Shown in pieces: positions 35,801 through 41,227 of a DNA stretch of 64,000 nt. The stretch is from Escherichia coli (GTDB taxonomy: Bacteria > Pseudomonadota > Gammaproteobacteria > Enterobacterales > Enterobacteriaceae). The notes beneath the pieces are model-generated. The model was not told the origin of the DNA, did no database searches, and saw nothing but the letters and a program-made list of their open reading frames with translations. Each line of letters opens with the position of its first letter. The stretch's first letter is position 1. Position numbers and translations under genes: made by a program. The stretch is taken from NCBI RefSeq assembly GCF_009931435.1, contig NZ_CP043414.1; one strand, written 5' to 3'.

Positions 35801-37396
35801 TTAATGACGCCACGGGATAATGTTACGCCAGTTAAACTTGAAGGGGGGGGCCGGATTACCGATAGCGCGACATTAACTATCGGAAATGGCGTCGATACGA
35901 CGCTTGCCGACCTGACGGCTGCCAGCCGGGGCAGTGTCTGGCTTAACAGCAATAATTCCTGTGCAGGCACCAGCAACTGCGAATATAGAGTAAACAGTTT
36001 GCTCCTCAACGACGGTGATGTTTATTTATCAGCACAAACAGCAGCGCCTGCCACAACTAACGGTATCTACAATACGCTGACCACCAGTGAACTTTCCGGC
36101 AGCGGTAATTTCTACCTGCATACCAACGTTGCAGGCTCCCGGGGCGATCAACTGGTCGTCAACAACAACGCCACTGGCAATTTTAACATCTTTGTTCAGG
36201 ATACCGGCGTCAGCCCTCAGTCTGACGACGCGATGACGCTGGTGAAAACAGGGGGAGGGGATGCTTCGTTTACGCTGGGTAATACCGGCGGTTTCGTTGA
36301 TCTTGGGACCTATGAGTATGTCCTGAAAAGCGACGGCAACAGCAACTGGAACCTGACCAATGATGTCAAACCCAACCCGGCCCCCAACCCAAATCCGAAA
36401 CCGGATCCAAAACCAGACCCAAAACCGGATCCGAAACCAGACCCGACTCCCGATCCAACGCCGACACCCGTCCCGGAGAAACGCATCACGCCTTCTACGG
36501 CAGCCGTACTCAATATGGCAGCAACATTACCGTTGGTCTTTGATGCTGAGCTAAACAGTATTCGCGAGCGGTTGAACATAATGAAAGCGAGTCCACACAA
36601 CAATAATGTCTGGGGGACGACGTATAACACCCGTAATAATGTCACCACCGATGCGGGTGCCGGGTTTGAGCAGACGCTGACCGGAATGACGGTGGGGATC
36701 GATAGCCGTAATGGTATTCCTGAGGGGATTGCTACGCTGGGCGCTTTTATGGGTTATTCCCATTCACATATCGGTTTTGATCGTGGAGGACATGGCAGTG
36801 TGGGCAGTTATTCTCTGGGGGGCTATGTCAGCTGGGAACATGAAAGTGGTTTCTATCTGGACGGTATCGTGAAGCTGAACCGCTTTGAAAGTAACGTAGC
36901 CGGTAAAATGAGCAGCGGTGGAGCCGCCAACGGCAGTTATCGCAGCAACGGGCTGGGCGGTCACATTGAAACCGGGATGCGATTTACCGATGGTAACTGG
37001 AACCTGACGCCGTATGCATCGTTAACGGGGTTCACCGCTGATAACCCCGAATATCATTTATCCAATGGTATGGAATCGAAATCAGTCGATACCCGCAGTA
37101 TATATCGTGAACTGGGCGCAACGCTGAGTTACAACATGCGTCTGGGGAACGGCATGGAAGTTGAGCCGTGGCTGAAGGCGGCTGTGCGCAAAGAATTTGT
37201 CGATGATAACCGGGTGAAAGTGAATAATGACGGTAATTTTGTCAATGATTTGTCGGGCAGACGTGGAATATACCAGGCAGGTATTAAAGCCTCATTCAGC
37301 AGTTCGTTAAGCGGGCATCTCGGGGTGGGGTATAGCCATGGTGCCGGTGTGGAATCCCCGTGGAACGCGGTGGCTGGTGTGAACTGGTCGTTCTGA
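32822..37396 (+). CDS. ypjA: AIDA-I-type autotransporter adhesin YpjA
   Basis: ORF 32735..37396; start placed at MNRTSRYYFRRSVLSLLISALIYAPPGMA signal peptide after GAGG RBS; repetitive passenger, Pro-rich linker, C-terminal beta-barrel ending ...NWSF. Confidence 0.85.
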   Translation: MNRTSRYYFRRSVLSLLISALIYAPPGMAAFTSNVIGVVNDETVDGVQKVDERGTTNNTHIINHGRQDVYGGVSNRSLIESGGYQDVGGHNNFVGQANNTTINGGRQTIHDGGISTGTIIESGNQDVYTGGISNGTTIKGGNSHISGGTANGTIIDGGSQRVTTQGHVDSTTINKSGSQDITQGSLATNTTINGGRQYVEQSTVETTTIKNGGEQRVYESYALDTTIEGGTQSLNNKSTAKYTQIYSGGTQIVDYTSTSDVIEIYSGGVLDVSGGTATNVTQHDGVILKTNTNGTTVSGTNSEGAFSIHNHVADNVLLENGGHLDINAYGSANKTIIKDKGTMSVLTNAKADATRIDNGGVMDVAGNATNTIINGGTQNINNHGIATGTNINSGTQNIKSGGKADTTNISSGSRQVVEKDGTATGSNISAGGSLIVYTGGIAHGVNQETGSALVANTGAGTDIEGYNKLSHFTITGGEANYVVLENTGELTVVAKTTAKNTTVDAGGKLIVQKEAKTDTTRLNNGGVLEVQDGGEAKHVEQQSGGALIASTTSGTLIEGTNSFGDAFYIRNSEAKNVVLENAGSLTVVTGSRAVDTIINANGKMDVYGKDVGTVLNSAGTQTIYASATSDKANIKGGKQTVYGLATEANIESGEQIVDGGSTDKTHIKGGTQTVQNYGKAINTDIVSGLQQIMANGTAEGSIINGGSQVVNEGGLAENSVLNDGGTLDVREKGSATGIQQSSQGALVATTRATRVTGTRADGVAFSIEQDAANNILLANGGVLTVESDTTSAKTQVNAGGREIVKTKATATGTMLTGGEQIVEGVANETTINDGGIQTVSANGEAVKTTINEGGTLTVNDNGKATDIIQNSGAALQTSTANGIEISGTHQYGTFSIAGNLATNVLLENGGNLLVLAGTEARDSTVGNGGAMQNLGQDFATKVNSGGQYTLGRSKDEFQALARAEDLQVAGGTAIVYAGTLADASVSGATGSLSLMTPRDNVTPVKLEGGGRITDSATLTIGNGVDTTLADLTAASRGSVWLNSNNSCAGTSNCEYRVNSLLLNDGDVYLSAQTAAPATTNGIYNTLTTSELSGSGNFYLHTNVAGSRGDQLVVNNNATGNFNIFVQDTGVSPQSDDAMTLVKTGGGDASFTLGNTGGFVDLGTYEYVLKSDGNSNWNLTNDVKPNPAPNPNPKPDPKPDPKPDPKPDPTPDPTPTPVPEKRITPSTAAVLNMAATLPLVFDAELNSIRERLNIMKASPHNNNVWGTTYNTRNNVTTDAGAGFEQTLTGMTVGIDSRNGIPEGIATLGAFMGYSHSHIGFDRGGHGSVGSYSLGGYVSWEHESGFYLDGIVKLNRFESNVAGKMSSGGAANGSYRSNGLGGHIETGMRFTDGNWNLTPYASLTGFTADNPEYHLSNGMESKSVDTRSIYRELGATLSYNMRLGNGMEVEPWLKAAVRKEFVDDNRVKVNNDGNFVNDLSGRRGIYQAGIKASFSSSLSGHLGVGYSHGAGVESPWNAVAGVNWSF

Positions 37397-37430: not shown

Positions 37431-38146
37431 ATATCACCAGGAGCCGCGGCTCCTTTGCGTATCCTTTTATGTCTCCTCACCGTCTGGTCGGTGTCTTGCT
37501 GAGACTTCTAACTTCCTGTTTTTGTTGGTGTTGTCCTTGTACCGTCCAATCATGATGCTGGCGTCTCTGTAATTAGTTATGTAATAACATGATAAATAAA
37601 TGGTTATTTGATTTAATAATAATTTAGGGTGCTAAAAAGGAACCATTAAATCTAAACTATCTGGTATTGCCGCATTTCTTATCAACCATATGATGGGCAA
37701 GATAGCACAACCATCAGTTCAGCTACCATCAGGGAGTTGAATTCAAAGTCATCACAACAAAACCCTCTCTGTTTGCTATAAACGAGATGAAGATTGGTAT
37801 TGCCACCACTACCGTATCAATCAGGGCGAAAGGTTGAGCTAAAGAGGGTAAAGCTCGACCTCACGTCTTAGAAAATGCTGTCCTTCAAACATGATTAGTG
37901 CAGAATTTAAACTGATTACTCGTAATGCCCTAATAAATATGAATATTTTAAAATAGGTTAAAACAGCCAAACTTATAGCACTTTTTGCTAAAGTCCTTAA
38001 AGCCTCGTCCTGTCACCTCATCCACGCTGCTCTTCGCCATCTGTGTAAAAAATGCTCAATAACGAAATAATTCCGGCAAAGCAGGTGTTGATTGTCATAC
38101 GCGATATTCGAATAATAACTCCATCAAAACAACAATGGAGAAATAT

Positions 38147-38347
38147 ATGGCAGTAAGAAGATTTATTCGTTTACCTGAAGTTATCAACAGAACTGGCTAT
38201 GGCAAAACATGGATTTATCACCTTATCAAGCGGGGTGAATTCCCTGAACCTATAAAGACTGGTGCAAGAACAATAGCATTTATTGAAAGTGAGATTGATG
38301 AATGGATTGAAGCTATTATTCGAAACTCACGCCAGAACGCAGCATAA
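38147..38347 (+). CDS. alpA: AlpA-family (excisionase-like) transcriptional regulator
   Basis: FIRLPEVINRTGYGKTWIYHLIKRGEFPEPIKTGARTIAFIESEIDEWIEA matches AlpA/phage regulatory HTH pattern. Confidence 0.8.
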   Translation: MAVRRFIRLPEVINRTGYGKTWIYHLIKRGEFPEPIKTGARTIAFIESEIDEWIEAIIRNSRQNAA

Positions 38348-38416
38348 AAACAGAAATAGGATCTCGTGTCGAACAGATATCTGTTCGCTCAGGGAATCTT
38401 ATTACCCTAAACAATA

Positions 38417-38719
38417 ATGGAGAAGAGTATGAAGATAGAACTTATTACGACAAAACAGTTTATTGAACAAGCCGAATGTTATTTCAGGAACTATATAGAC
38501 GGATTGCGGAGGAATGCACCAGATGATTTTTATTATTTTCTCAACAATAAATACAATATGAATGACATTATGGAAAGTATCATTAAAAAAACGAGATATC
38601 ATTTTTATGATGACACAGAAGAAGGTAAAAGGAATCGGATTTATGGAGAAGTAAGCCACAGTAAGGTAAAGCAACACCTTCGTCAGCTTTGGATTGTCTA
38701 TAAATGTGTATACCGCTAA
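38417..38719 (+). CDS. Hypothetical protein
   Basis: 100 aa ORF downstream of alpA, same strand; no recognisable motif. Confidence 0.4.
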   Translation: MEKSMKIELITTKQFIEQAECYFRNYIDGLRRNAPDDFYYFLNNKYNMNDIMESIIKKTRYHFYDDTEEGKRNRIYGEVSHSKVKQHLRQLWIVYKCVYR

Positions 38720-38771
38720 TACTTATACAAATATTTTGCTATTCCAATATTAAACTAAATAGGAAATAAAA

Positions 38772-39068
38772 ATGAATACATTTAAAAATAAATCTACTGA
38801 AATCTTTTATGTTGTGTCCTTGCATATCTACGCGGAGCTTTTTAACTCAAAGGATAAAACGACCAGCAATATGATTATAACGCATGTAATGGATCATGAG
38901 TTTGTCTGTAGGCTAATCGATCTGGCGATGAGAAATGCTGAGAAGCATCTTCTGAAAAAAGCATGGAAAAAGAACGCTGCTGAAAAACTGTCTGAGGTGG
39001 ATTTTAAAGGGGTTAAGCAGGCATTAGCTAAAATGCATTACACTGTTCTGGCGGAATCAATATGTTGA
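38772..39068 (+). CDS. Hypothetical protein
   Basis: 98 aa ORF, same strand as alpA cluster; no recognisable motif. Confidence 0.4.
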   Translation: MNTFKNKSTEIFYVVSLHIYAELFNSKDKTTSNMIITHVMDHEFVCRLIDLAMRNAEKHLLKKAWKKNAAEKLSEVDFKGVKQALAKMHYTVLAESIC

Positions 39069-39116
39069 TATGTTCTGACGTCTATCGGCCCCTTCTTGGG
39101 GCTGATAATCGGATGA

Positions 39117-39599
39117 TTAAGGTGCTATTCTGCGGCGAGCTTTGTTTTGCTGCTGTTCAATGGTTGAGGCTATGGTCGATAGTTGCTCAAGACTCTGTTC
39201 AATTGAACGCTGGAACGCAACAGCGGCTTCAGTACGTTGTTTTATGACCAAGGCTACTATTTCTTCATCGCTCTTTTCTGAAATGGCCTTACGGTATAAT
39301 ACGCGTTCGTTAAATAAATCGAGATTACCAGTTGGTCTCGCTGATGTATTAGCTTTTGAACTGCTGATGGGATTTAACTCGTCAATAAAGTATTCAATAA
39401 GAGATTCTCTCTTCTTTTCAAGTCTGCGAAGTTCGGTATGTGCAGATTTAAATTTCTGAGCCTTAACTAATGGAATATCATCGGAACGCAGTTTGCGATA
39501 TTCATTTCTGTATTCTTCTATCGAAATATGATTTTATAGTTCTTTGACTGTATTTACACATTCGATTAAATCACTGTTGTCTGTTTTTACTTTTCTCAT
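39117..39599 (-). pseudogene. Hypothetical gene interrupted by an in-frame TAA (codon 22)
   Basis: Minus-strand frame ATG at 39599 reads MRKVKTDNSDLIECVNTVKEL-stop then 138 further sense codons with no Met or stop until 39117. Confidence 0.35.
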
Positions 39600-39753: not shown

Positions 39754-40311
39754 TTAATTTTTATTATTCACTGGTTTCTTTTTTTCCTTCAAGTAATAAG
39801 TTTTCATGAAAGTCAAACGATCACCATTAAACATATAGTCTGGATTAATAAAATAATAGTTTTGTATCATGGTCTCAGCAATAAATTTCTTGTCAGCAAG
39901 TTCTTTCATCCCTTTGAAATATGTCGTTCTTGATATTTTTACAATCTCTTGATCAACAATATCGAATGACATTAATATCGTATCTGTATCTTTATTGTCT
40001 CTAATAGCAAGATACAGTATCTTAAATACTTTCTTACCTGATGAGGATAAACCCTCAATAGCTGATACGCCATCCACATAAAGTTTCACGAACTGTGTCT
40101 TGTCTACTTCCATTGACTGAAAGAAACCACCATGTCCAACCTGTTCTCCTGTATTTTCATTTACTACGGCTAAGCGATCTTTTCCTGTTGTGATACGTCT
40201 GATACCTGTTTTTGTATGTATATTTGTATCATTAAGGAATGGGTTTTTTACATGGCGAGGTAGACCTCTTCTTGATTTCTTTACTTCCGTTTGTATTTTA
40301 TTTTCTATCAT
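39754..40311 (-). CDS. Hypothetical protein, possibly DNA-binding or replication-associated
   Basis: 185 aa basic ORF adjacent to a highly structured repeat-containing intergenic region; function not recognisable by eye. Confidence 0.5.
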   Translation of the reverse strand: MIENKIQTEVKKSRRGLPRHVKNPFLNDTNIHTKTGIRRITTGKDRLAVVNENTGEQVGHGGFFQSMEVDKTQFVKLYVDGVSAIEGLSSSGKKVFKILYLAIRDNKDTDTILMSFDIVDQEIVKISRTTYFKGMKELADKKFIAETMIQNYYFINPDYMFNGDRLTFMKTYYLKEKKKPVNNKN

Positions 40312-40721: not shown

Positions 40722-40758
40722 CAGCGAAGTGATTGTGTGGAACAATCACGAATCGCTG
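40722..40758. repeat. 37 bp near-palindromic element copy 1 (CAGCG-AA-GTGATTGT-N5-ACAATCAC-GAAT-CGCTG)
   Basis: Read directly; perfect 8 bp inner inverted repeat plus outer 5 bp arms. Confidence 0.7.
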
Positions 40759-40860
40759 CTTTTATTGTGAGAGCTTAATTAATTTTTCTTTTACTTTATA
40801 TGCGTCTTCGACGCGATCTTTTTTTGGATAAATCCATCATTAACAGGGGCAAGCCCTGTC

Positions 40861-40897
40861 CAGCAAAGTGATTGTCGGCAACAATCACGAAATGCTG
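40861..40897. repeat. 37 bp near-palindromic element copy 2 (CAGCA-AA-GTGATTGT-N5-ACAATCAC-GAAA-TGCTG)
   Basis: Same architecture as copy 1; outer arms changed on both sides so pairing is preserved. Confidence 0.7.
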
Positions 40898-41227
40898 CTA
40901 CTAAAGATATAGTTTTCCTATACGTTTAAGAGCAAATGCTATATGTCAGATGGGGAATGCTATGTTTAAACATAGGATCTGAATTAAAAGTTAAAAGGAA
41001 AATAGATCTAACTATGTTCGAATACATTCGCTTATTACCTCATAGTAGTAAAATAAAATACAAAATGTCAGTTTTAGGGCGTAGCCGTGCGTAAGCATAG
41101 AGATAAATATCTTTTCAAAAAGAAGTTTAAAAATAATAAGTAAAAGCATGAAGAAAACACAGATATATTTGATTTTTACGCTTACGATAGAGTATTAAGC
41201 AGTAATAAATAAAAAAGGGAAAACACA

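Follow-up and report, generated by a model that had tools for sequence, protein, structure and literature searches.

A 922-bp segment with alpA and two small genes as the probable excisionase end of a ROD21-like island with an exchanged, ssrA-specific integration module in Escherichia coli

The 922-bp segment studied here (positions 38147-39068 of the window, which is the whole 64,000-nucleotide stretch of an E. coli contig that was analyzed) is most probably the conserved end, bearing the excisionase (RDF) gene, of an integrative mobilizable island of the ROD21-like (EARL) type in which an ssrA-specific integration module has replaced the original one; the probability of this reading is put at roughly 0.8. 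A preliminary description of this DNA had noted an AlpA-type regulator about 17 kb from the integrase, at the edge of the island close to ypjA, with two small genes following it. Both observations were borne out, as alpA lies 17.3 kb from the ssrA integrase and the two genes are located 3′ of it on the same strand (Table 1). The ypjA stop codon is at 37396, and the alpA start is found 751 bp beyond it and about 580 bp inside the ypjA-side junction of the island. The puzzle that this layout had posed is mostly explained already.

Table 1. Coordinates of the features of the island and its borders, as positions in the window.
Feature	Coordinates	Strand	Description
ypjA-side attachment remnant	37556..37565		Degenerate pseudo-ssrA 3′ end TGCTGGCG; left island boundary
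Non-coding island arm	37566..38146		Junction to alpA
Promoter candidate for alpA	38088..38116	+	Sigma-70-like, TTGATT-17-AATAAT; consensus match only
alpA	38147..38347	+	66 aa; predicted winged-helix RDF/excisionase-type DNA-binding protein; SEN1998 orthologue
RNA hairpin	38355..38403	+	18-bp palindrome CGAACAGATATCTGTTCG (38369-38386); between alpA and ORF1, without U-tract
ORF1	38429..38719 (alternative start 38417)	+	96 aa (100 aa), all-alpha; orthologue of SEN1997/c2415
ORF2	38772..39068	+	98 aa, helical; orthologue of SEN1996/c2414
GC-rich hairpin	39084..39106		ATCGGCCCC-TTCTT-GGGGCTGAT; separates ORF2 from the convergent DUF4756 pseudogene; candidate transcription-unit end
DUF4756-family pseudogene	39117..39599	-	In-frame TAA at codon 22
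RepL-like replication/maintenance protein	39754..40311	-	Pfam RepL, E 1.5e-5, 25 bits (cut-off 20.3); RefSeq annotation of homologues
MobA/MobL (MOBQ) relaxase	47283..48764	-	Pfam PF03389, E 2.7e-54
TraD-like conjugal transfer protein	49410..49715	+	Pfam PF06412, E 1e-10
Type IV pilin PilS	50107-50670	+	Pfam PilS, E 1.5e-28
PilV-like tip protein	50723-52186	+	Pfam Shufflon_N, E 3.9e-14
Lamassu LmuB	52247-54019	-	PADLOC, E 1.8e-224
Lamassu LmuA	53991-55079	-	PADLOC, E 2.1e-137
Integrase remnant	55349..55606	-	C-terminal 85 codons, Asn-tRNA EARL-type
Intact integrase	55625..56854	-	P4-type tyrosine integrase, ssrA lineage; adjoins the tmRNA gene
ssrA	57019..57381	-	tmRNA gene

The distance between alpA and the integrase had been taken as a sign of composite origin, on the assumption that AlpA-type regulators sit beside their cognate integrases. 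This assumption holds for CP4-57 of E. coli K-12 (intA-yfjH-alpA) but not for ROD21-like islands, which have int and the RDF gene at opposite ends. For EARL islands, the integrase was reported close to one attachment site and the RDF close to the other "in all cases" (PMC6035254), and this arrangement has been used as a boundary criterion for such islands (PMC10763509). When synteny was compared with CP4-57 and with other ssrA islands, alpA was adjacent to intA in CP4-57 and int-distal in the ssrA island of CFSAN061763. Orthologous islands routinely share the int-distal order, which was observed in every related locus with a readable integrase end, HH97, CFSAN061763, C. rodentium and ICEKp258.2 among them. 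On shorter enterobacterial contigs, alpA and the small ORFs stand in the same order where an edge of the element borders chromosomal genes. Contigs from E. coli, Citrobacter and other enterobacteria repeat this order. Since an int-distal RDF is the rule in the ROD21-like family, the 17-kb gap is no evidence of composite origin; the apparent distance of alpA from the integrase arises from drawing the island as a linear map, opened at its attachment site.

The comparison also largely refuted the idea that alpA was parted from its cognate integrase by rearrangement or by accretion of unrelated elements, with its position being a scar of composite assembly. Such a history is very unlikely. It would agree with the mosaic makeup of the island (an integrase remnant adjoining the integrase, the Lamassu cargo, the deleted hns genes) and with the 1.2 kb that separates alpA from intA in CP4-57, whereas the orthologous RDF regularly occupies the int-distal position, as in ROD21, ICEKp258.2, the serU island, the asnT islands of the CI5 type and the second island of the ssrA lineage, and the alpA of the window is not the alpA of CP4-57 (33% protein identity). 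The Yersinia HPI likewise encodes its RDF, Hef, far from int; both this element and ICEKp1 differ from the island of the window in element family, integrase and cargo.

In terms of its sequence, the AlpA of the window matched Pfam PF05930 Phage_AlpA (E 1.2e-16; 60.7 bits, cut-off 21) as well as PHROG excisionase/regulator families, and its pI is 9.8. It is 80% identical over 61 aligned residues, and 71% identical globally, to SEN1998 of ROD21, which was equated with a 72-aa S. Enteritidis protein through residues matching the published ones. Among the residues that are reported to matter for the activity of SEN1998 as an RDF (PMC8844411), Tyr-30, Pro-39 as well as Arg-47 are identical in the AlpA of the window, and Phe-24 is replaced by Tyr. 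The protein is closer to its counterpart in ROD21, an island integrated at an Asn tRNA gene (71%), than to that of the other ssrA island, in CFSAN061763 (60%), and thus AlpA identity does not track integrase type, which counts against the excisionase-end reading.

By analogy with SEN1998, the AlpA of the window would bind DNA that flanks the att sites and bias the integrase towards excision. SEN1998 binds both att regions by EMSA, its deletion from ROD21 cut excision only slightly, and int mRNA was unchanged by either its deletion or its overexpression (PMC8844411). Because deletion of SEN1998 barely lowers excision, the RDF role is weak even in the model island. The two attachment arms of the window island have no convincing repeat motifs in common that could serve as RDF/Int arm sites, and no AlpA binding motif was identified.

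It is possible, with the odds clearly against it, that AlpA is instead chiefly a transcription factor (an activator or antiterminator) that turns on ORF1, ORF2, hnsT in relatives, or other island genes, and that its part in recombination directionality is minor. The AlpA of P. aeruginosa is an antiterminator, that of K-12 is annotated as a transcriptional activator, and a stable hairpin without a U-tract lies between alpA and ORF1 (dG -19.9 kcal/mol, z -2.8). The nearly unchanged excision upon SEN1998 deletion (PMC8844411) points the same way, as does the lower island gene expression that follows when ROD21 excision is blocked by deletion of int and SEN1998 (PMC6035254). Against this stand the in vitro binding of SEN1998 to both att regions, the indifference of int mRNA to its overexpression or deletion (PMC8844411), the lack of an identified AlpA motif, and the only partial conservation of the hairpin in distant relatives; in close relatives it is kept. 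A transcriptional function of AlpA would be compatible with the excisionase-end reading of the segment.

The left boundary of the island was set by comparison with K-12 psaA and with CFSAN061763. The ypjA-side remnant is the counterpart of psaA (TGGTGGGCTGGCGG, which directly follows CCAATCATGAT in the K-12 context), and CFSAN061763 carries TGGTGCTGGCG at the equivalent place. On the integrase side, the attachment repeat consists of the last 15 nt of ssrA (57019-57033, TGGTGGAGCTGGCGG on the + strand), and the core GCTGGCG is common to the ypjA-side remnant and to ssrA at 57026-57032. The ypjA-side repeat is badly degraded, with 8 of the 15 nt left (TGCTGGCG), and the island may therefore excise poorly or not at all. 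The left arm was also searched for long copies of the ssrA 3′ end in direct repeat, and none of at least 11 nt turned up. A T-loop-like 10-mer at 37732 (GGGAGTTGAA) was considered as the attachment core and was dropped, as the homology to all E. coli ends exactly at 37556-37565.

With these ends, attP would be located between int and alpA, both of which read inward from the two ends of the island. In the excised circle, int and alpA would become divergent neighbours about 750 bp apart, and the non-coding arm would form half of an int-attP-alpA control region. In ICEKp1, int transcription can depend on DNA that is joined across attP in the circle (PMC13023037). The arm contains no ORF of at least 60 aa in the ORF list, and hence no DUF6387/SEN1999-like gene. 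Of 5,426 E. coli genomes, roughly 80 contain its stretch from 37897 to 38133, conserved at about 74%. The block with the promoter candidate is nearly invariant between the islands of the window and of CFSAN061763, and the spacer of the candidate contains the palindrome ATTCGAAT.

The island is composite, as had been proposed, on evidence other than the position of alpA. The intact integrase is 87.5% identical in protein sequence to the ssrA integrase of CFSAN061763 and 49% identical to IntA of K-12, and with the Asn-type integrase of EARL islands, represented by that of the CI5 asnT island, the identity is as low as 33%. It is abutted by the integrase remnant, which has 92.5% nucleotide identity to the integrase gene beside tRNA-Asn in E. 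coli CI5; for the relaxase, TraD and pilus genes of the backbone, the nucleotide identity to the CI5 island is 91.5%. Recombination breakpoints were placed at 55624/55625 and at about 38147-38162, and the homology to ROD21 begins 15 bp inside alpA. The Asn-type remnant, the divergent ssrA-type integrase and the two breakpoints together indicate that the composite structure is real. The replaced int/attP/alpA-upstream segment comprises 55625-57018 together with 37566 to about 38160. On the circular form these two stretches join into a single unbroken piece of about 2 kb; on the integrated map, a swap of this one cassette looks like changes at both ends of the island. The locus is a clear case of a target change, from Asn-tRNA to ssrA, by the swap of a single int-attP-promoter cassette.

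In comparison with ROD21, the orthologous trio SEN1998/SEN1997/SEN1996 (80%, 96% and 93% protein identity) is present in the same order, on the same strand and at the end opposite int, and the MOBQ relaxase, TraD, PilS/PilV, RepL-like and DUF4756 backbone and the low GC content are shared as well. The published sizes of the ROD21 trio genes are 219, 303 and 297 bp, with c2415 and c2414 listed as the CFT073 homologues (PMC3198454). The GC content of the island of the window, 37.7% compared to 49-50% in its flanks, is within the published EARL range of 35.7-39.2% (PMC7074111). As in EARL islands, a SEN1998-type RDF lies opposite the integrase and relaxase, TraD and pilin genes are present. The island departs from the EARL definition in that it lies between ssrA and ypjA, with repeats derived from the ssrA 3′ end rather than from Asn-tRNA; in that its intact integrase does not belong to the EARL clade, the 85-codon remnant being the sole survivor of that type; and in the lack of the DUF6387/SEN1999 gene of about 843 bp beside the RDF gene, which is found in most but not all members (ROD21, HH97, L009 and L010-L015 have it). 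It also differs from ROD21 in having neither hnsT nor hns, with hnsT, DUF6404 and hns removed at a deletion junction at 39108/39178, and in having Lamassu in place of TIR/CBASS-type cargo. With this cargo the island brings an anti-phage system to the ssrA hotspot.

In uropathogenic E. coli, the serU island (c2414/c2415 in CFT073; examined in strain HH97) showed 93-95% nucleotide identity to the window from 38276, inside alpA, to pilV (52180). It also combines a ROD21-related backbone with a non-EARL integrase, as already described (PMC7074111). In contrast to the island of the window, it occupies another site, its integrase is 32% identical to that of the window, its alpA diverges over the 5′ two-thirds of the gene (57% identity at the protein level), and it keeps hnsT, DUF6404, hns and tcpC. 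The CFSAN061763 island has the same ypjA ... ssrA site, the related integrase with an adjoining integrase fragment, the conserved alpA-upstream arm and promoter block, and, at the ypjA edge, alpA with small ORFs after it. However, its AlpA is the more distant one noted above, its small ORFs (104 and 98 aa) are other paralogues, a NIPSNAP gene is inserted in its arm, and its cargo is different. CP4-57 resembles the island of the window in the ssrA 3′-end site, the pseudo-ssrA remnant by ypjA, the P4-type integrase and an AlpA-family protein, and differs in the low identity of its integrase and AlpA, with no other gene content common to both. The identification as a CP4-57-type prophage was rejected on the 17-kb distance of alpA from int and the lack of yfj genes in the island. 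A phage-inducible chromosomal island (PICI) was also rejected, as no packaging or capsid genes were found and MOBQ relaxase, TraD and pilus genes were present instead.

The two small genes had been described as unannotatable. This is true in that neither has a significant family in Pfam, NCBIfam or PADLOC, but both are orthologues of named, uncharacterised genes, SEN1997/SEN1996 of S. Enteritidis and c2415/c2414 of CFT073. Their products are basic (pI 9.1 for both) and match PHROGs of unknown function over their full length (ORF1, phrog_38005, 4.5e-65; ORF2, phrog_19730, 5.3e-49). Homologues occur in several enterobacterial genera, and the dN/dS values of 0.08-0.32 demonstrate purifying selection; ORF1 and ORF2 are therefore real genes. 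The predicted structure of ORF1 is a helical bundle (pLDDT 86.5), and the model of ORF2 is poor (pLDDT 49). Sequence-profile searches of the PDB gave no significant match. When 1.84 billion representatives were searched exhaustively with an ORF2 profile, only 14 matches were returned, all within its own family and none to a known one.

Profile comparisons through intermediate sequences place ORF1 and ORF2, as distant paralogues, in a single family whose genes are arrayed in tandem downstream of alpA, a relationship reported here for the first time. The direct comparison was not significant (hhalign probability 1.9%, shuffle z 0.2), whereas the comparisons via intermediates reached hhalign probabilities of 94%, 81% and 92% and shuffle z-scores of 5.9-10. 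Members of the family are basic, all-alpha proteins of about 100 aa that share the motif (K/E)ST-x-x-F in their N-terminal part and (D/E)V-x-F-x-x-VK-x-x-L in their C-terminal part, and the arrays downstream of the RDF gene contain 2-4 diverged paralogues on one strand. The conserved "hypothetical" genes beside the RDF gene in ROD21, in ICEKp258.2 and in the serU island of uropathogens belong to one diverged paralogue family, which makes them a defined target in medically relevant islands. The two genes occur together in all nine loci in which both positions are readable. An addiction pair, such as a toxin-antitoxin system that stabilises the island, would fit this co-occurrence and the adjacency of two genes of about 100 codons each, but it is hardly credible: the genes do not overlap and are separated by a 52-bp gap, the products are both basic and paralogous to one another instead of having two distinct folds, neither matched a known family of toxins or antitoxins, and the size of the array varies from 2 to 4.

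In terms of distribution, the ORF1/ORF2 family is confined to ROD21-like islands. It is absent from 50,697 phage records, and among 72,556 plasmid records no genuine plasmid carries it, the few matching records being very large or a small fragment. The idea that ORF1 and ORF2 are leading-region genes was rejected on this absence from phages and on the doubtful nature of the plasmid matches. The preliminary description had also raised the possibility that these genes are regulators or anti-defence factors, which the analysis left without support, though not refuted. It is unlikely that they are anti-defence or anti-restriction proteins that shield the island upon entry into a new host. A small, mobile-element-restricted, variable one-strand array of 2-4 diverged paralogues does resemble anti-defence loci. 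However, both proteins are basic, unlike DNA-mimic anti-restriction proteins; the likely oriT, placed between mobQ and traD, is about 8 kb away, and the genes are not in an immediate leading region; the family is missing from the phage records and from genuine plasmids; and the orthologues are under strong purifying, not diversifying, selection. PADLOC, whose library consists of defence and not anti-defence models, gave sub-threshold matches only for the two proteins (ORF2, E 0.019).

The three genes may form one transcription unit that would run from the promoter-like site at 38088-38116 to the hairpin at 39084-39106. The hairpin between alpA and ORF1 could end transcription, which counts against a single unit. 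In relatives hnsT comes after ORF2, and in canonical relatives the same gene string continues into this H-NS antagonist gene; ORF1 and ORF2 themselves showed no similarity to H-NST. With low confidence, we suggest that the two proteins are accessory nucleic-acid- or nucleoid-protein-binding factors that are co-expressed with the RDF and help to switch on the AT-rich island, which is silenced by H-NS, at about the time of excision and transfer. The more specific proposal that this family, co-expressed with the RDF and H-NST, supplies the effectors so far missing from accounts of how ROD21-like islands are activated, whether as excision/replication accessory factors or as antagonists of host silencing or defence, is doubtful; if true, it would explain why deletion of SEN1998 alone barely affects excision. 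As hnsT and hns were lost from the island of the window while ORF1 and ORF2 remained intact, any link of these proteins to H-NS antagonism would be independent of the island's own H-NS genes.

The window is an E. coli-like chromosome segment, with 95-99% identity to E. coli genomes in its core flanks, and a 19.5-kb island with a GC content of 37.7%, against 49-50% in the flanks, lies in it between ypjA and ssrA. Between 38276, inside alpA, and 52180, in pilV, this island shares 93-95% identity with the serU island known from extraintestinal E. coli such as HH97, and it contains the backbone genes characteristic of the ROD21-like (EARL) family: a MobA/MobL relaxase, TraD, PilS pilin, PilV and a RepL-like gene. 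A Salmonella Enteritidis contig, reached through a homologue of ORF2, the second small gene after alpA, has the order DUF6387 - AlpA (72 aa) - 96-aa ORF - 85-aa ORF - SMODS gene; its AlpA protein agrees with SEN1998, the excision factor of ROD21, at all published residues and secondary-structure positions (PMC8844411). SEN1998 (219 bp, AlpA), SEN1997 (303 bp) and SEN1996 (297 bp) are listed in PMC3198454 with the CFT073 homologues c2415 and c2414, and the proteins of alpA, ORF1 and ORF2 in the window are 80%, 96% and 93% identical to the three Salmonella proteins, respectively. The island is an ssrA-retargeted derivative of the ROD21-like islands. None of the complete E. coli genomes in the collection had this exact mosaic, and an ssrA-targeted derivative of ROD21-like islands was not found in the literature searched.

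Coordinates of the principal features of the island and its borders
Feature	Coordinates	Strand	Remarks
ypjA autotransporter gene	ends 37396		
Sigma-70-like promoter candidate	38088-38116		Consensus-type site
AlpA-family ORF	38147-38347	+	Pfam PF05930, E 1.2e-16
ORF1	38429-38719	+	Same strand as alpA; 96 aa, 100 aa from upstream ATG
ORF2	38772-39068	+	Same strand as alpA; 98 aa
GC-rich hairpin	39084-39106		3′ of ORF2
DUF4756 gene	39117-39599	-	In-frame TAA nonsense at codon 22; adjoins hnsT/hns deletion
Lamassu LmuB	52247-54019	-	Anti-phage cargo
Lamassu LmuA (DUF4297)	53991-55079	-	Anti-phage cargo
Integrase remnant, Asn-tRNA EARL type	55349-55606	-	Last 85 codons, directly beside intact ssrA-type integrase
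Integrase	55625-56854		Only intact copy; adjoins ssrA
ssrA (tmRNA gene)	57019-57381	-	

The preliminary description had placed alpA at the ypjA edge, followed by two small ORFs and far from the integrase, and this layout was borne out, with 17.3 kb between the two genes. Its reading of this position as a sign of composite origin did not hold, because an integrase-distal alpA is already known as the documented norm for ROD21-like islands; EARL islands have the integrase gene close to one attachment site and the RDF gene close to the other 'in all cases' (PMC6035254). Synteny comparison likewise placed int and alpA at opposite ends in the HH97 serU island, in the second ssrA/ypjA island of E. 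coli CFSAN061763 and in the published gene table of ICEKp258.2. On C. rodentium and other enterobacterial contigs, the alpA/small-ORF order was found at the element edge beside chromosomal genes; the region read there did not reach the integrase ends. In the window, int and alpA both point into the island, int from the side of ssrA and alpA from that of ypjA. Joining coordinates 57018 and 37566 brings the two genes to about 750 bp from each other, divergently oriented and on either side of attP, and the distance in the integrated form thus reflects the attP site and is no rearrangement scar. In ICEKp1, regulation can depend on the attP junction (PMC13023037), a precedent that might by analogy extend to EARL islands. 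In the HH97 serU island (loci L001/L003), it is the alpA end that touches the tRNA-Ser 3′ end, with the integrase at the zinT side, the reverse of the usual arrangement with int beside the tRNA gene.

The island is indeed composite, but on other grounds, namely an integrase remnant, breakpoints and an arm of ssrA-lineage type. The intact integrase shares 87.5% identity with its CFSAN061763 ssrA counterpart, 49% with K-12 IntA and no more than 32-33% with the integrases of the serU island and of the Asn-tRNA type. The remnant has 92.5% nucleotide identity to the tRNA-Asn-adjacent integrase in the E. coli CI5 island, a ROD21-like element. A comparable fragment is present in CFSAN061763, which argues that the hybrid lineage is established and not a one-off. 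The breakpoint at 55624/55625 coincides with the stop codon of the newly acquired integrase. At the other end, ROD21 homology starts at 38162, 15 bp inside alpA, and the 580-bp arm upstream of alpA resembles only ssrA-lineage islands (~74%, in about 80 of 5,426 genomes). On the circular map, the exchanged DNA forms a single uninterrupted cassette of ~2 kb (55625-57018 plus 37566 to ~38160) with int, attP and the promoter region of alpA, which supports regarding int-attP-alpA as a unit. An analogous integrase exchange has already been described for the serU island (PMC7074111).

At the ypjA end of the island, a search for a long ssrA repeat gave none. In K-12, psaA (TGGTGGGCTGGCGG) marks the ypjA-proximal end of CP4-57, directly 3′ of …CCAATCATGAT; the equivalent place holds TGGTGCTGGCG in CFSAN061763 and TGCTGGCG in the window (37556-37565), and homology to nearly all E. 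coli genomes ends here. The ypjA-side repeat corresponds to the final 15 nt of ssrA (57019-57033) and keeps the core GCTGGCG intact, but excision may be impaired by the degradation of this copy. A block conserved with CFSAN061763 (37717-37745), ~170 bp inside the boundary, contains GGGAGTTGAA, identical to the ssrA T-loop and T-stem segment (57032-57041), which could be left from a former attachment site or match by chance. Directly upstream of the integrase start codon, three GGGACCC/GGGTCCC-type motifs (56856-56895) are possible regulatory or arm-type sites. A tRNA with anticodon CAU (29605-29680, +), called tRNA-Met by ARAGORN and annotated as tRNA-Ile in its CFSAN061763 homologue, is located outside the island, upstream of the ypjCB-like and ypjA genes.

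ORF1 and ORF2 had no match in Pfam, NCBIfam or PADLOC. They are real genes, as indicated by full-length homologues in Escherichia, Salmonella, Klebsiella, Citrobacter, Kluyvera, Raoultella and Yersinia and by dN/dS values of 0.08-0.32. Both proteins are basic (pI 9.1). ORF1 is confidently predicted as a helical bundle (pLDDT 86.5), for which a structural-neighbour search gave no informative match; the ORF2 model is poor (pLDDT 49), and an exhaustive profile search with ORF2 returned only 14 representative clusters, all inside the family. Neither gene occurred in 50,697 phage records, and the few matches among 72,556 plasmid records included records of 393 kb, 502 kb and 4.8 Mb and one 2.5-kb fragment, which from their size look chromosome-derived or mislabelled; PHROG membership of the two genes is therefore probably prophage-prediction spill-over. 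Islands differ in how many small ORFs follow alpA, from 2 to 4. A 108-aa member, on a contig with a Yersinia-type ORF2, aligned without gaps to both ORF1 (shuffle z 5.9) and ORF2 (z 10.1), and in profile-profile comparison its family matched ORF2 with 94% probability, ORF1 with 81% and the 96/98-aa family with 92%. Direct comparison of ORF1 with ORF2, by profile-profile and shuffle test, was not significant. From these sequence relationships we conclude that ORF1 and ORF2 are distant paralogues in a tandemly expanded, island-specific family; the variable number of the small ORFs and their relatedness are new here. Recognition of this single family, like the clean int-attP cassette swap, is of modest interest.

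Homology and published experiments on the orthologue support placing AlpA in the RDF class, as a winged-helix DNA-binding protein that would bind att-flanking DNA; in ROD21, the effect of SEN1998 on excision was small (PMC8844411). As a rival role, AlpA would be an activator or antiterminator. The sigma-70-like site sits in a block almost invariant between the window and CFSAN061763 islands, which are elsewhere about 75% identical. We propose that the alpA promoter and operator would lie in the arm next to attP, that alpA, ORF1 and ORF2 would be co-transcribed, and that the small proteins would serve as accessory DNA- or nucleoid-protein-binding factors in island activation; alternatively, they would be anti-defence or addiction proteins. 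A palindrome, ATTCGAAT (38104-38113), in the spacer of the promoter-like site and conserved in the CFSAN061763 island, is a possible operator. Between alpA and ORF1 is a hairpin without a U-tract (38355-38403; dG -19.9 kcal/mol, z -2.8) that is kept in close relatives and only partly in distant ones. A 23-nt direct repeat (38127-38149 and 38409-38431; 83% identical, AAACAA[C/T]AATGGAGAA…ATG) forms the translation-initiation regions of alpA and ORF1.

In canonical relatives, the same-strand string runs on into a 78-80-aa protein with the H-NS N-terminal domain only, H-NST, a known H-NS antagonist. Relative to HH97, the window has lost 1.4 kb that contains hnsT, DUF6404 and a full-length hns paralogue (junction 39108/39178). 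The complete Lamassu pair sits between pilV and the integrase remnant. The defence cargo that related islands have in its place is TIR/TcpC, ApeA, a Dcm/ATPase pair or a SIR2-family protein, and in ROD21 it is a SMODS/SLATT pair at the alpA end, immediately following the small ORFs. A non-coding stretch of ~900 bp upstream of the RepL-like gene contains two 39-nt internally palindromic repeats (CAGCGAAGTGATTGT…ACAATCACGAATCGCTGCT; 40722-40760 and 40861-40899, 139 bp apart) that are kept in ROD21, HH97, CFSAN061763 and C. rodentium and could be a replication origin or operator.
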